Source: a virus
Lineage: Duplodnaviria > Heunggongvirae > Uroviricota > Caudoviricetes
Direction: 5' to 3' (one strand)
Length of the DNA: 8,120 nucleotides
IMG/VR virus record: IMGVR_UViG_3300026224_000022
A program made the position numbers and the translations under genes. The stretch's first letter is position 1; each line of letters starts with the position of its first letter. Below, piece by piece: positions 1,476 through 7,661 of this stretch. The notes under the pieces are model-generated. The model saw only the letters and a list, made by a program, of their open reading frames with translations. It was not told where the DNA came from and searched no databases.

Positions 1476-1486
1476 ATGCCCTCCGA

Positions 1487-1502
1487 ACTAAGTTTTATTA
1501 GA
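1487..1502. promoter_or_regulatory. Putative operator site (imperfect palindrome ACTAAGTTTTATTAGA)
   Basis: Left half ACTAAG is identical to the perfect site at 1536..1551; right half matches 4 of 6. Sits next to the cro start. Confidence 0.45.
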
Positions 1503-1535
1503 TGTTAATTATCAATCTATCTTAGGTCAATAAAA

Positions 1536-1551
1536 ACTAAGATTACTTAGT
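1536..1551. promoter_or_regulatory. Putative operator site (perfect 16-bp palindrome ACTAAG-ATTA-CTTAGT)
   Basis: Perfect inverted repeat with 6-bp arms and a 4-bp spacer, 22 bp upstream of the repressor start codon. Confidence 0.55.
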
Positions 1552-1572
1552 AATTAAAGAAATGGTGCTCCT

Positions 1573-2199
1573 ATGGAAACGGTTGGTCAGCGTATAAAAG
1601 CTCTGAGAAGAGTTACCAGAACGTCCCAGAAAGAATTGGGTAAATTTTGTGGAGTAAGTGACGTTGCTGTGGGGTACTGGGAGAAAGACATCAATGTCCC
1701 TGGTGGAGAAGCACTTTCAAAATTAGCGAAGTTCTTCAATACGTCAATAGATTACATTCTTTATGGTGCGGAGTTTGAAGGCAAACTCGTCACAAACATG
1801 CGCAGAGTTCCTGTAATCTCGTGGGTTCAGGCTGGGCAGTTTACTGAGTGCAGGACAGCAGAAGTGTTTAGTGAAGTAGACAAGTGGGTAGATACATCAT
1901 TAAAGATTGGTGATAACTCATTTGCATTGGAGGTTAAAGGCGACTCCATGACTAACCCTAACGGCCTCCCAACAATACCAGAAGGCGCAACAGTGATTGT
2001 AGATCCTGATGCAGAACCCCGGCATGGAAAAATAGTCATCGCTAGACTTGATGGAACAAACGAAGCCACAGTAAAAAAATTAGTTATCGATGGCCCTCAA
2101 AAGTTTTTAGTGCCATTAAATCCCCGGTACCCCAACATCCCGATCAATGGTAATTGCCTCATCATTGGTGTAGTCAAAGGAGTTCAATACGAACTCTAG
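1573..2199 (+). CDS. CI-type phage repressor, 208 aa (N-terminal XRE-family HTH plus C-terminal S24 LexA-like autopeptidase)
   Basis: N-terminus METVGQRIKALRRVTRTSQKELGKFCGVSDVAVGYWEKD is a canonical XRE HTH. Ala87-Gly88 in VQAGQF (nt 1831..1836) is a candidate RecA-stimulated cleavage site. Ser125 in GDSM (nt 1945..1947) and Lys168/169 in VKKL form the catalytic dyad, spaced as in LexA and lambda CI. Divergent from a cro-like gene. Confidence 0.9.
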   Translation: METVGQRIKALRRVTRTSQKELGKFCGVSDVAVGYWEKDINVPGGEALSKLAKFFNTSIDYILYGAEFEGKLVTNMRRVPVISWVQAGQFTECRTAEVFSEVDKWVDTSLKIGDNSFALEVKGDSMTNPNGLPTIPEGATVIVDPDAEPRHGKIVIARLDGTNEATVKKLVIDGPQKFLVPLNPRYPNIPINGNCLIIGVVKGVQYEL

Positions 2200-2215
2200 C
2201 TCCCCTTTTCTCTAA

Positions 2216-2249
2216 CCAAAACACCGAACTAAGAAAAGTTTGGTGTTTT
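2216..2249 (+). terminator. Hairpin just after the repressor gene (possible weak terminator)
   Basis: AAACACC (2219..2225) pairs with GGTGTTT (2241..2247) and is followed by TTTC. The 15-nt loop is large for an intrinsic terminator and contains an operator half-site, so this may be a DNA-level element rather than a terminator. Confidence 0.3.
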
Positions 2250-2279
2250 CTCTTGCCATCAAAACTAAGTTAAGTTAGA
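2228..2279. promoter_or_regulatory. OL-like operator repeats downstream of the repressor gene
   Basis: AACTAAG heptamer at 2227..2233 and 2263..2269. Candidate 16-bp sites ACTAAGAAAAGTTTGG (2228..2243) and ACTAAGTTAAGTTAGA (2264..2279) share the left half-site with the OR-side sites. They lie upstream of the first plus-strand gene after the repressor. Confidence 0.45.
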
Positions 2280-2383
2280 TTTTATATCAAAGATAACGAA
2301 CAGGCAGGACGCCCACGAAGTAGCCGCCGGTGGCGTATGAATGACCGGATGATTCGTTAAATACTATGTGTAAGAGAGCGCAA

Positions 2384-2587
2384 ATGAACCGTTATTTCAC
2401 ATGCTCGTTTTGTGGCGCAAACGAGCTGCAGGCAAAAAAAATCATCGCCAAAGGCGGAAAAGATGAAGTTGCTATCTGCTCTGAGTGCGTAGTCTTGTGT
2501 GTCGGGGCATTAATCAATATCAGCACAACTATTCAGTTCACACCAAATGAGAATGCGCCTTTAGATGCGCGGAAATCTGGAGGTTAA
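2384..2587 (+). CDS. Small protein (67 aa) resembling the ClpX N-terminal C4 zinc-binding domain
   Basis: ATG at 2384 with AGAGAG 5 nt upstream (track start 2366 has no SD). MNRYFTCSFCGANELQAKKIIAKGGKDEVAICSECVVLCVGAL matches the ClpX ZBD pattern as I recall it (CSFCG ... K/R-x-I-A ... IC-x-EC-V-x-LC), with all four Cys present. No AAA+ module follows. Confidence 0.75.
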   Translation: MNRYFTCSFCGANELQAKKIIAKGGKDEVAICSECVVLCVGALINISTTIQFTPNENAPLDARKSGG

Positions 2588-3034: not shown

Positions 3035-3129
3035 TTGATTTTCCTTTTATGTATACGGACTTAAAAGGATACCACCGAGCCTGAAGTGGTGAAAAGACAG
3101 GCACATAACAGCTAAGTATTTTCAACCAG

Positions 3130-3450
3130 AGAGAATCCTTAGCGTTGTGGTGAATGCGGCTCAGCGCACGCGGGTTAAGGTTGAGGCTGACAGTCGACCT
3201 TCTGTGGATACCCACCCGCCTGGTGTGCAACCTTCGCCAGGCACCGGGAGGCACCCGGCACCACAACTTTATGCTGTGTGTAGTCCTGGCGGTACCAGCT
3301 TGTACCATTGCTTCCGGCTGGTACCGTCCTTTTTACAAAACAGAGAAGAGCATCACCGGACGACGGGCTCATAACCCAATCCATCCGGGCGGCAGCCACC
3401 GCAGGTGTTCTTCTCTGTTTTGTGGAGAAACCAACCGACCTTGCAGGGTC
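3130..3450 (+). other. GC-rich, hairpin-dense non-coding region (candidate structured RNA or regulatory/terminator cluster)
   Basis: Local GC is much higher than the flanks. ORFs here are Arg/Pro-rich, overlap in all frames and lack SD. Stems: 3218..3225 with 3235..3242 (8 bp); CCGGG/CCCGG 3244..3258; 12-bp stem 3288..3299 with 3317..3328 followed by T5; 13-bp perfect inverted repeat 3337..3349 with 3409..3421. Confidence 0.4.
3288..3334 (+). terminator. Intrinsic-terminator-like hairpin with T-tract
   Basis: GGCGGTACCAGC (3288..3299) pairs with GCTGGTACCGTC (3317..3328), 12 bp with one G-U, 17-nt loop, then C plus TTTTT (3330..3334). Could be a terminator inside the early operon, or the 3' end of a small RNA. 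Confidence 0.5.
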
Positions 3451-3899: not shown

Positions 3900-4724
3900 A
3901 TGTCTCAGTACTTAGACGCAACCGCAATTAATCAAATCCAATCCCTTATTTCTGCTCAGGGTGTTAATGAAATTATCAGTAAGATTGGTGCCGATGCTGT
4001 GGCATTGCCTGAGAATTTCCGCATTCATGATCTGGAAAAATTTAATTTAAATCGTTTCCGTTTCCGTGGTTCACTTTCCACTGCCAGCATCGATGACTTT
4101 ACCCGTTATTCTAAAGATCTTGCAGATGAAGGCACCCGCTGCTTTATCGATGCCGATAATATGCGAGCCGTCAGTGTGCTTAACCTGGGTACTATTGATG
4201 AACCAGGTCACGCAGATAACACCGCCACTCTCAAACTGAAAAAGACAGCACCGTTCTCTGCTCTGTTGTCTGTTAATGGCGAGCGTAACTCCCAGAAGTC
4301 ACTGGCAGAATGGATTGAAGACTGGGCCGACTACCTTGTGGGCTTTGATGCTAATGGTGACGCCATTCAGGCAACCAAAGCGGCTGCGGCGATCCGTAAA
4401 ATCACAATTGAAGCGAACCAGACCGCTGATTTTGAAGACAATGACTTCAGCGGCAAACGCTCCCTGATGGAGTCTGTCGAAGCGAAGACCAAAGACATTA
4501 TGCCAGTGGCATTTGAATTTAAATGCGTTCCGTTTGAAGGTCTGAAAGAACGTCCGTTTAAATTACGCCTCAGCATTATCACTGGCGATCGTCCTGTACT
4601 GGTTCTGCGCATTATTCAGCTGGAAGCGGTGCAGGAAGAAATGGCTAACGAATTTCGTGATCTGCTTGTTGAGAAATTCAAAGACAGCAAAGTAGAAACC
4701 TTTATTGGTACTTTCACCGCCTGA
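3900..4724 (+). CDS. yfdQ: YfdQ-like protein, 274 aa (DUF-type prophage protein of unknown function)
   Basis: ATG at 3900 with TGAGGA about 7 nt upstream. Long ORF with good codon usage. Size and position match YfdQ of CPS-53 (recalled, not searched). Confidence 0.85.
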
Positions 4725-4736
4725 TTTCATTACTGC

Positions 4737-4758
4737 AAATGCCCCTGCGGGGGCATTT
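4737..4758 (+). terminator. Hairpin after the yfdQ-like gene (terminator/attenuator candidate)
   Basis: AAATGCCCC (4737..4745) pairs with GGGGCATTT (4750..4758) across a 4-nt loop, 13 nt after the stop codon. The T-run lies within the stem, so this is a weak or bidirectional terminator. Confidence 0.4.
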
Positions 4759-4851
4759 ATGGAAACGTAATTAACTCAATAATCACCGGATGGTGAGGGA
4801 TTCTTTTTAGCAGAATTCAGCGCGGTGCAGCGCATATACGTGGAGAACAAA

Positions 4852-5388
4852 ATGTCATTTATTAAAACTTTTTCCGGGAAGCATTTTTATTATGACAGGA
4901 TAAATAAAGACGACATCGATATTAACGATATCGCGGTTTCCCTTTCAAATATCTGTCGCTTTGCCGGTCATCTTTCGCACTTCTACAGCGTCGCCCAACA
5001 TGCGGTTCTTTGCAGCCAGCTGGTGCCGCAGGAATTTGCTTTTGAAGCGTTAATGCATGATGCAACAGAAGCGTATTGCCAGGACATTCCCGCACCACTG
5101 AAACGCCTTCTTCCTGACTATAAACGGATGGAAGAAAAAATAGACGCCGTAATCCGTGAGAAATACGGGTTACCACCGGTTATGAGTACGCCCGTGAAAT
5201 ATGCCGATCTCATCATGCTGGCAACCGAACGCCGCGATCTCGGGCTTGATGATGGCTCTTTCTGGCCTGTACTGGAAGGTATCCCGGCAACAGAGATGTT
5301 CAACGTGATTCCACTGGCTCCAGGCCATGCCTACGGGATGTTTATGGAACGCTTTAACGAATTATCGGAGTTACGCAAATGCGCATGA
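4852..5388 (+). CDS. yfdR: HD-domain phosphohydrolase, YfdR-like 5'-deoxynucleotidase, 178 aa
   Basis: ATG at 4852 with GGAG (4842..4845) 6 nt upstream; the track start at 4825 is GTG without SD. H...HD signature visible (SVAQHAVL ... ALMHDATEAY). Length 178 aa matches K-12 YfdR, which I recall as a characterised HD-domain 5'-deoxynucleotidase. Confidence 0.85.
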   Translation: MSFIKTFSGKHFYYDRINKDDIDINDIAVSLSNICRFAGHLSHFYSVAQHAVLCSQLVPQEFAFEALMHDATEAYCQDIPAPLKRLLPDYKRMEEKIDAVIREKYGLPPVMSTPVKYADLIMLATERRDLGLDDGSFWPVLEGIPATEMFNVIPLAPGHAYGMFMERFNELSELRKCA

Positions 5389-7158: not shown

Positions 7159-7440
7159 ATGAACACCTTGTTTTTACTGATGGCTGAATTCAATACCCCT
7201 AACATTGAACTCTCAGCAGTTAGCCAAAAGTACTTTGGCATGAGTCCAGCCACGGCAGAAGCAAAAGCAAACGCTTGTAAGTTGCCCGTTCCAACATATC
7301 GCATCGGCACATCACAAAAAGCAAAACGTTGCATCAATATTCAGGATCTTGCGGAATACATAGACAAAAGACGAGAAGAAGGACGTATCGAGTGGGAACA
7401 GGTCAGAACAAGCAAACAGAAGGGCAAAGAACATCACTAA
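7159..7440 (+). CDS. PrtN-family / excisionase-like small DNA-binding protein, 93 aa
   Basis: ATG at 7159 with GGAG (7149..7152) 6 nt upstream; the track start at 7132 is GTG. N-terminus MNTLFLLMAEF... and a basic C-terminal half resemble PrtN-type pyocin activator/excisionase-like proteins (by-eye, from memory). It is the last gene of the plus operon, in the same terminal position torI occupies in KplE1. Confidence 0.7.
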   Translation: MNTLFLLMAEFNTPNIELSAVSQKYFGMSPATAEAKANACKLPVPTYRIGTSQKAKRCINIQDLAEYIDKRREEGRIEWEQVRTSKQKGKEHH

Positions 7441-7446
7441 ATAAAA

Positions 7447-7468
7447 AACCCGCCTAAAGGCGGGTTTT
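7447..7468. terminator. Bidirectional rho-independent terminator
   Basis: AAAAAACCCGCC-TAAA-GGCGGGTTTT: 6-bp GC stem CCCGCC/GGCGGG (7449..7454 with 7459..7464) flanked by an A-run and a T-run. Lies between the convergent stops at 7440 (plus) and 7488 (minus). Confidence 0.75.
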
Positions 7469-7487
7469 CAAAAAGCACCAGCTATGA

Positions 7488-7661
7488 TCATGCTGCTTTG
7501 CGACGACGAAGCTTACCCTGCTGCTCTTTACCAGAGACAGTAGCGTGAGTGAACGCATTAGGAGCAGCCTTCATCAGAACTTCAACAGCAGCACCCATAC
7601 CTGCGAATGCTTTCATTGTGTCGAACTTAACCTGTGGCTTGGTTGCTTTTTGATCTTCCAT
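7488..7661 (-). CDS. Small protein, 57 aa, Ala/Lys-rich (absent from the ORF track, below its length cutoff)
   Basis: Hand translation of the minus strand: ATG at 7661..7659 with AGGAG 6 nt upstream; MEDQKATKPQVKFDTMKAFAGMGAAVEVLMKAAPNAFTHATVSGKEQQGKLRRRKAA; stop TGA at 7490..7488, followed by the bidirectional terminator. Confidence 0.6.
   Translation of the reverse strand: MEDQKATKPQVKFDTMKAFAGMGAAVEVLMKAAPNAFTHATVSGKEQQGKLRRRKAA

Follow-up and report, generated by a model that had tools for sequence, protein, structure and literature searches.

What are four copies of the heptamer AACTAAG doing in the two short intergenic regions that flank a cI-like gene? The first-pass annotation of the window (the whole 8,120-bp stretch of DNA analysed here) had counted four copies in the window, all of them beside cI, as compared with about one expected by chance, and had read them as operator repeats in the OR/OL arrangement of a lambda-like immunity region. 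Scanning the whole window on both strands bore out this count: AACTAAG occurs at 1486–1492, 1535–1541, 2227–2233 and 2263–2269, always on the plus strand, and nowhere else, with a calculated chance expectation of 0.81 and four copies in none of 200 dinucleotide shuffles. All four fall within the intergenic regions 1476–1572 and 2200–2383, so that about 260 bp of the 8,120-bp window hold every copy. A longer pattern, CTAAG-N5-TTAG with at most one mismatch, gave seven strand-matches in the window against 1.4 expected (0/200 shuffles), and these were confined to the same four places, as they were in the cultured phage mEp460_4F5.

That phage carries the same immunity region at 99.6% identity. 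The first-pass annotation had proposed a motif scan of related phages and had held that a heptamer common throughout the genome would speak against operators. In the full 42,927-bp genome of mEp460_4F5, where about five occurrences spread across both strands would be expected by chance, we found four copies of AACTAAG, each at a site homologous to one in the window, and the heptamer is therefore not common in the genome. A position weight matrix derived from relatives of the repressor likewise reached 15 bits or more only at the four homologous sites of this phage, as compared with 0.05 such sites per genome in first-order Markov simulations.

The genes around the repeats make the window a textbook lambdoid immunity region, consisting of cro, a CII-like/YmfL gene, a repressor and a plus-strand operon. 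On the minus strand, a cro-like gene of 66 aa (1275–1475) belongs to the Pfam P22_Cro family (E 4.4e-11; transcriptional regulator in PHROG) and its product is 30% identical to P22 Cro (E 4e-9), with the CII-like/YmfL gene behind it. The cI-type repressor of 208 aa is encoded on the plus strand (1573–2199) and combines an N-terminal HTH_3 domain with a C-terminal Peptidase_S24 domain (E 1.6e-27). Its residues 3–65 match the N-terminal domain of P22 c2 (phmmer against PDB entries 1adr, 2r1j and 3jxb, E 6–7e-10; 42% identity by tblastn), and the closest solved relative of its C-terminal domain is lambda cI (E 4e-28). The segments VQA87-G88, GDS125M and K167K align with A111-G112, S149 and K192 of lambda, which form the cleavage site and the catalytic residues; with its Ala-Gly cleavage site and Ser/Lys dyad in an S24 domain, the protein is predicted to be an SOS-cleavable repressor of the LexA/cI type. 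The plus-strand operon opens with a small ClpX C4 zinc-finger protein (2384–2587; Pfam zf-C4_ClpX, E 1.4e-10), in agreement with the RefSeq annotation of a homologue.

Two promoters were found by consensus scanning. A PR-like promoter for cro on the minus strand (1502–1530) has its -35 hexamer TTGACC at 1530–1525, a 17-nt spacer and its -10 hexamer TAACAT at 1507–1502, and GGTCAA, which is this -35 read on the other strand, is retained in most relatives. On the plus strand, a PL-like promoter (2253–2281) consists of TTGCCA (2253–2258), a 17-nt spacer and TAGATT (2276–2281); in most relatives its -35 is TTGACC. A PL-like promoter near 2260–2300 had been anticipated in the first-pass annotation, and the hexamers at 2253–2281, with the strongest of the repeats lying between them in the register of P22 PL and OL1, make this proposal probable.

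To ask whether the repeats hold their place when the surrounding DNA does not, we compared 21 relatives, with repressors 63–90% identical, from nine enterobacterial genera (Enterobacter, Kosakonia, Kluyvera, Serratia, Rahnella, Yersinia, Rouxiella, Providencia and Proteus); the repressor of phage LLS is a relative as well (89%). All relatives keep the recognition-helix motif GVS[DG]V[AST]VGYWE[KR]D, and 18-bp sites of the form A-N-CTAAG-N4-CTTAG-N-T hold fixed positions among them despite diverged flanking DNA. Upstream of the cI start, sites occur at about 88, 64 and 39 bp in the 21 relatives, and in the window, as in 15 of these 21 relatives, a further pair of sites follows the cI stop at distances of approximately 15–40 and 50–75 bp. 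The OR/OL arrangement claimed for the window thus gains support from fixed offsets in 21 relatives, although in its details it is P22-like rather than built from the 17-bp operators of lambda.

Sites from the window served to seed the matrix, which was then trained on the relatives and draws on the window sites together with 96 distinct matrix hits in relatives (overlapping frames included). Matrix scores in the window and its relatives are therefore partly circular, whereas the positional clustering of the sites is not. The resulting consensus, AACTAAGTTAACTTAGTT, is the same as the candidate ACTAAG-N4-CTTAGT of the first-pass annotation, extended by one base on each side, and its information is minimal at position 2 and at the G/C bases that adjoin the centre.

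In the window, three sites fall between cro and cI. The first, an OR1-like operator at 1486–1503 (AACTAAGTTTTATTAGAT, 19.8 bits), covers the predicted start site of PR together with the last bases of its -10; the corresponding site about 88 bp upstream of cI is kept in most of the 21 relatives and stands in the register of P22 OR1. The OR3-like operator at 1535–1552 (AACTAAGATTACTTAGTA, 19.1 bits) contains the heptamer that had been described as part of a perfect 16-bp palindrome (1536–1551). This description needs correcting: the sequence is ACTAAG-ATTA-CTTAGT, in which the two 6-bp arms match perfectly but the 4 bp between them are not self-complementary, and because only 12 of its 16 positions are symmetric it is a 6+4+6 inverted repeat. 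The site also includes TAAGAT (1538–1543), which is kept in all but one (L020) of 37 distinct sequences and in OR3 of P22, while most OR1 and OL1 sites carry TAAGTT where OR3 has TAAGAT. TAAGAT is therefore a candidate -10 element of PRM.

Between these two lies a weaker, OR2-like site at 1510–1527 (TATCAATCTATCTTAGGT, 9.3 bits), which overlaps the PR -35 by 3 nt and shares the register of P22 OR2. Its counterpart in relatives, ACCAAT-CTAA-CTTTGGT at the same offset of about 64 bp from cI, is more symmetric and scores 8.8–16.9 bits. We regard it as the probable third OR site, overlooked in the first-pass annotation; it is the weakest of the five assignments, its 9.3 bits comparing with 8–9 bits for background matches elsewhere.

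Downstream of cI, the OL1-like operator at 2263–2280 (AACTAAGTTAAGTTAGAT) has the top score of all (23.6 bits) and sits between the -35 and -10 hexamers of PL. Of about 40 distinct E. coli and IMG/VR variants only two depart from its sequence, while the bases on either side vary among them, and it is identical in 11 of the 15 relatives that possess an OL region. An OL2-like operator at 2227–2244 (AACTAAGAAAAGTTTGGT, 18.0 bits) is embedded in the terminator hairpin of cI. The matrix scan found nothing of 8 bits or more around 2200–2226 that could be a third OL site beside OL2; in many E. coli variants a further AACTAAG stands 13 bp upstream of OL2, without a partner half-site. Taking the sites together in close E. 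coli variants, polymorphic columns made up 9 of 90 within sites as compared with 44 of 104 outside them (Fisher p = 3e-7), with part of the polymorphism outside being indel misalignment at segment edges.

The sites share their architecture with those of phage P22, whose repressor binds an 18-bp site as a dimer that leaves the central 4 bp uncontacted (PMC4267663). In both systems the operators are 18 bp long and two-fold symmetric about an inner AAG-N4-CTT core, and here, too, they appear to be made of 7-bp half-sites around a 4-bp centre, arranged as three OR sites, a weak OR2 among them, and two or more OL sites that keep a fixed register with PR, PRM and PL. Read on the cro strand, the order in the window is OR3, TTTA, the -35 TTGACC (whose last 3 nt begin OR2), OR2, ATTAAC and OR1, with the final 2 nt of the -10 TAACAT forming the first 2 nt of OR1. 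P22 has a like order and register (OR3, AAAC, TTGACT/OR2, ATATA, OR1, -10 TATAAT), such that in both phages 4 nt separate OR3 from the PR -35, OR2 shares 3 nt with that -35, OR1 begins with the final 2 nt of the -10, and TAAGAT lies within OR3. Centre-to-centre spacings in OR are 24 and 25 bp here and 23 and 25 bp in P22. At PL, the window reads TTGCCA, TCAA, OL1 and a -10 TAGATT that overlaps the end of the site, and P22 reads TTGACC, ATTT, OL1 and TAAATT in the same register, so that OL1 follows the -35 by 4 nt in both; OL2 and OL1 are 36 bp apart here and 35 bp in P22. The proteins are related as well, the repressor through an N-terminal domain homologous to that of c2 and Cro through its membership of the P22_Cro family. 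We take the names of the individual P22 sites, including the one called OL2, to be those of the classical literature.

The two systems differ in ways that bear on specificity. The outer half-site reads A-a-C-T-A-A-G here as compared with A-n-T-n-A-A-G in P22, and helix 3 reads SDVAVGYWEKD as compared with SNVAISQWERS. Because both the helix-3 residues and the outer half-site bases differ, the specificity should differ from that of P22, making the two phages presumably heteroimmune; at the level of sequence, these differences speak against homoimmunity with P22 or phage 21. An inner AAG that is shared and outer bases that are not would be consistent with the helix-3 sequences. In addition, P22 has a third OL site, with none detected here, and the overlap of OL2 with the cI terminator, a repressor C-terminal domain closest to lambda cI, and the leader RNA and ClpX-zinc-finger gene downstream of PL (in P22, nutL and gene 24) all set the window apart from P22.

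Likeness to lambda lies in the overall plan: cI and cro diverge from a tripartite OR whose sites are spaced by about 24 bp, further operators cover a PL that follows cI in the same orientation, a terminator separates OL from the cI transcription unit, and the C-terminal domain is a self-cleaving S24 domain. The operators of lambda measure 17 bp and have another sequence, its N-terminal domain comes from another subfamily, and it carries rexAB between cI and OL; the distance from OR to OL is approximately 2.4 kb in lambda and 0.78 kb here.

The e14 element of E. coli K-12, with its YmfK repressor and YmfT/CroE, has the same gene order as the window and shares its flanking modules, namely a YmfL homologue beside cro and a cI terminator followed by PL and by the same leader RNA. 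The C-terminal domains of the two repressors are 42% identical, but the N-terminal domain and Cro of e14 are unrelated to those here. Equivalent regions of e14, the PL promoter included, hold operator-like repeats of another kind, TGTACC...GTACA. We considered whether e14 could be of the same immunity and rejected this: given the unrelated N-terminal domain and Cro and the TGTAC-type repeats, it is a heteroimmune sibling. That a heteroimmune relative has a different repeat in the equivalent regions marks these positions as immunity-specific sequences.

The four heptamers and the fifth, weaker site are thus very probably the OR and OL of a P22-type immunity module carried by a lambdoid prophage of the mEp460_4F5 immunity type. 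Each heptamer would be the better-conserved half-site of one of four 18-bp two-fold symmetric operators, with the fifth, weaker one between the OR copies. The predicted target of the cI-type repressor and of Cro, both acting as dimers, is A-N-CTAAG-N4-CTTAG-N-T, in which each helix-turn-helix would read one outer 7-bp half-site and leave the central 4 bp uncontacted. At OR, a repressor on OR1 (1486–1503) would mask the PR start site together with the end of its -10, and one on OR2 (1510–1527) would overlap the PR -35, such that occupancy of both would switch off cro and the rightward early genes. OR3 (1535–1552), over the likely PRM -10, would serve negative autoregulation and is also a likely target of Cro, which is expected to use the same sites as the repressor. 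OL1 (2263–2280), between the hexamers of PL, would block the early-left operon on the plus strand; OL2 (2227–2244), 36 bp upstream of OL1, lies inside the DNA that encodes the cI terminator hairpin, which in turn would keep PRM transcripts from entering the PL operon. Induction would proceed by RecA-stimulated self-cleavage at A87-G88, carried out by S125 and K167. Where the sites lie, how unlikely and how conserved they are, and the homology of proteins and layout to P22 are seen in the sequences themselves; binding, the order of occupancy, cooperativity, the position of PRM and the transcript starts are predictions of this model.

The copy at 2227 is the one for which another reading has to be weighed most seriously. 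On the plus strand, an intrinsic terminator-like hairpin follows cI at 2218–2249, with a 13-bp stem (2218–2230 with 2237–2249), the loop AAGAAA and a U-rich tail; its RNA fold has an energy of -15.6 kcal/mol (z -4.3). The hairpin was found as an inverted repeat and by folding, while a terminator scan of the window did not list it. On the other reading, only three copies of the heptamer (1486, 1535 and 2263) would belong to operators, with the 2227 copy forming the top of a terminator stem-loop to which no repressor binds. This reading draws on the position of the copy within the stem, and on the right half-site GTTTGG, which is degenerate and agrees with CTTAGT at 3 of 6 positions; the conserved GTTTGGTG of E. 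coli-like relatives doubles as the 3' arm of the stem, and conservation of OL2 among these relatives could reflect the terminator stem alone. The wider comparison points the other way. Most relatives have an OL2-like site about 36 bp upstream of OL1, and its left half stays [AGT][ACGT]CTAA[GT] while the stem below it changes (CACCGAACT, CATCAAACT, CACCAAGCT); hairpins at the same place in LLS and Kosakonia have different stem sequences. In Yersinia, Providencia and Proteus, a good palindrome, AGCTAAGTTTTATTAGAT, occupies the OL2 position at an equal distance from OL1, outside any predicted stable stem, and in Yersinia proxima a separate small hairpin lies upstream of it. P22 has its second OL site at nearly equal spacing, and the score of 18.0 bits compares with 15 bits that simulated genomes almost never reach. 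A purely terminator role for the 2227 copy is unlikely in light of these observations, and we conclude that the copy is probably both OL2 and part of the cI terminator. If this is true, a single sequence doubles as a DNA operator and an RNA terminator.

Far less probable is that the repeats serve some protein in place of cI, such as Cro by itself, a host nucleoid protein or the CII-like activator, or that they have no dedicated binder and reflect the architecture of AT-rich promoters. The sites are indeed AT-rich and overlap promoter elements, but their motif co-varies with the recognition helix of the repressor, as relatives that keep GVSDVAVGYWEKD keep the motif and e14 combines an unrelated N-terminal domain with an unrelated motif at the same places. 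Two-fold symmetry and a length of 18 bp fit a dimeric helix-turn-helix repressor of the P22 type, and a CII-like activator is from a different family whose targets would be expected elsewhere. Short heptamers can recur at random in AT-rich intergenic DNA, but a chance cluster, already refuted by the shuffles, by the matrix scan of mEp460_4F5 and by the occupation of the same positions in relatives from nine genera, is next to impossible when every copy falls in so small a part of the window.

With the repeats read as operators of a P22-type module, the locus is, as far as its sequence tells, an ordinary lambdoid switch with a predicted new specificity within the P22 c2-type family; the mechanism is textbook, and the immunity type is so far uncharacterised. 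In the literature searched we found no published operator sequences or binding data for the immunity region of this repressor, and the occurrence of AACTAAG in one paper (PMC5977221) proved unrelated, as part of an oligonucleotide flank. The region is widespread: of 5,426 complete E. coli genomes, 513 carry 80% of it or more. The predicted 18-bp sites form a directly testable operator set and allow prophages to be assigned to this immunity group from sequence. They would also provide a natural specificity variant of the much-studied DNA recognition by P22 c2, in which N32D, S36G and Q37Y in helix 3 are paired with T-to-C changes in the half-site.

Adjoining the operators, and separate from them, is a conserved structured RNA of 64 nt on the plus strand (2295–2358), at the 5' end of the predicted PL transcript. 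It begins about 14 nt past the PL -10, a few nucleotides after the predicted PL start. The element is 83–98% identical across many heteroimmune phages, is usually unannotated, and in the temperate phages examined always follows the repressor gene directly. Folding of the leader as a single sequence did no better than shuffles (z -0.5), and the structure emerged by comparative analysis only: in a diverse alignment of 20 copies, RNAalifold and a hand-drawn model agree on a closing helix P1 (2295–2300 with 2353–2358), a GGC/GCC mini-hairpin that is nearly invariant, a core of 14 nt (GCCCAYGNAGUAGC) in which 12 positions never vary, and a covarying hairpin P2 (2327–2331 with 2344–2348) with the conserved loop GGCRUAUGAAG. 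Covariation supports this structure strongly: compensatory changes occur in 10 of the 14 pairs, and 92% of cells across the 20 copies are paired, as compared with 22–41% when the partners are slid against each other. A covariance model then recovered 58 further copies in IMG/VR, with 94.7% of cells paired and a covariation score of 0.56 (0.14 when shuffled), figures that lean towards the structure because the alignment was fitted to the model.

The leader RNA matched no known family that we compared. Rfam cmscan, with E up to 1, gave no match at 2290–2365 and no RNA of any kind within 2200–2400, and searches of the literature with the core strings found nothing relevant. A relationship to the put sites of HK022 was considered and rejected, as blastn and the covariance model (R1, filters off) found nothing significant in the HK022 PL/putL region, and the mEp460 genome holds one copy only, lacking the second copy downstream of PR that is characteristic of put. 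The PL leaders of lambda and P22 scored 8.6 and 6.2 bits with the covariance model, which is not significant, and share only CAGCAGGACGC with the 5' part of the leader RNA.

Upstream of the leader RNA copies we found TTGAC-type promoters together with many unrelated operator-like repeats. We tentatively propose, as a possibility short of even odds, a modular early-left control region in which the operators are the variable, immunity-specific part and the apparently undescribed 64-nt RNA is the constant part. The RNA also occurs in virulent T5-like and T7-like phages, including T5-like Providencia phages and a Drulisvirus, and this occurrence suggests an association with early transcription. 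As a conserved feature of early transcription in many phages, the leader RNA could matter more than the operators, and it is the more interesting of the two. Candidate roles are antitermination together with boxA, or protection of the transcript. If the RNA acts on the transcription complex or the transcript, whether by processive antitermination, by protection from Rho or RNases, or in partnership with boxA, it would represent a new family of regulatory RNAs in phage early leaders. A boxA-like motif, CGCTCTTTAACAA, is present 8–45 nt after the leader RNA in 19 of 128 distinct contexts, with a background of 0.005 per 200 nt.

The predicted PL transcript (promoter at 2253-2281, plus strand) carries at its 5' end a conserved structured leader RNA of 64 nt (2295-2358, plus strand), with covariation at 10 of its 14 base pairs. 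Its paired elements are a P1 helix, a mini-hairpin (GGC/GCC) and a P2 hairpin with the loop GGCRUAUGAAG; it also contains a core of 14 nt, GCCCAYGNAGUAGC, in which 12 positions are invariant. When the sampled IMG/VR contigs were scanned with a covariance model of the element, 58 additional copies were recovered; the core 14-mer had exact matches in at least 120 stretches, some of these by chance. The leader RNA sits 3' of PL-like promoters belonging to many immunity types, and is also carried by T5-like and T7-like phages. We found no match to it in Rfam, and the model detected nothing significant in the HK022 put region, which encodes an antiterminator RNA.

Comparison with the PL leader regions of lambda (L297, 539-583, minus strand) and P22 (L005, 2260-2335, plus strand) revealed that CAGCAGGACGC is common to both of these leaders and to the 5' part of the leader RNA. 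In lambda, a CACC-AUGAA-GGUG hairpin occurs at the place expected for P2. The scores of the model on the lambda and P22 leaders were not significant.

In 19/128 distinct contexts, a boxA-like CGCTCTTTAACAA was positioned 8-45 nt 3' of the leader RNA (background rate, 0.005 per 200 nt), as seen in the relatives L011, L012, L033, L034, L093-L143 and L248; in L034, the boxA is followed by a boxB-like hairpin. The window itself lacks a boxA, and its leader RNA is followed by a ClpX-zinc-finger gene instead (2384-2587, plus strand; Pfam, E = 1.4e-10). The product of this gene, the first one downstream of PL, is 67 aa long and consists essentially of a ClpX C4 zinc finger on its own, assigned to function unknown in PHROG; such a protein could interfere with substrate or adaptor recognition by ClpX. 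Further downstream, Rfam yielded a sub-threshold STnc100-like match on the plus strand at 3114-3337 (E = 1e-6), whose 42.4 bits fall short of the gathering score of 47, and a weaker one at 4716-4895. The STnc100-like match falls in a 440-nt non-coding stretch 5' of a yfdP-like gene. Because the homologous non-coding stretch is joined directly to the PL promoter in phage LLS, a relative with an 89% identical repressor, this stretch may represent a second long leader of early transcription, or an sRNA.

In the commonest E. coli variants from IMG/VR (e.g., L113 and L116), the sequence corresponding to 2211-2222 reads TCTAACTAAGGCACCGAACTAAG, where the window has TCTAACCAAAAC; this reading generates a fifth AACTAAG, 13 bp upstream of OL2 (2227-2244), for which a partner half-site is absent. 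In L016-L018, L020 and L029 (Rouxiella, Serratia and an uncultured Gammaproteobacteria MAG), no operator pair occurs downstream of the repressor gene, which is followed by a terminator-like hairpin and unrelated DNA. L020 and L029 carry an additional operator pair ~440-570 bp upstream, and the module arrangement therefore differs there. Across both strands of the whole mEp460_4F5 genome (L167), AACTAAG was never found outside the immunity region, versus ~5 occurrences expected, nor was CTAAG-N5-TTAG with up to one mismatch, versus ~4.8 expected, a scarcity of operator-like sequences that may reflect avoidance.

A strong hairpin, AAAACCCGCCTTTAGGCGGGTTTT (7444-7469), separates the excisionase-like gene, ending at 7440, from the convergent minus-strand gene at 7488-7661. 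Several weak Rfam matches occur at this hairpin, which looks like a bidirectional terminator.
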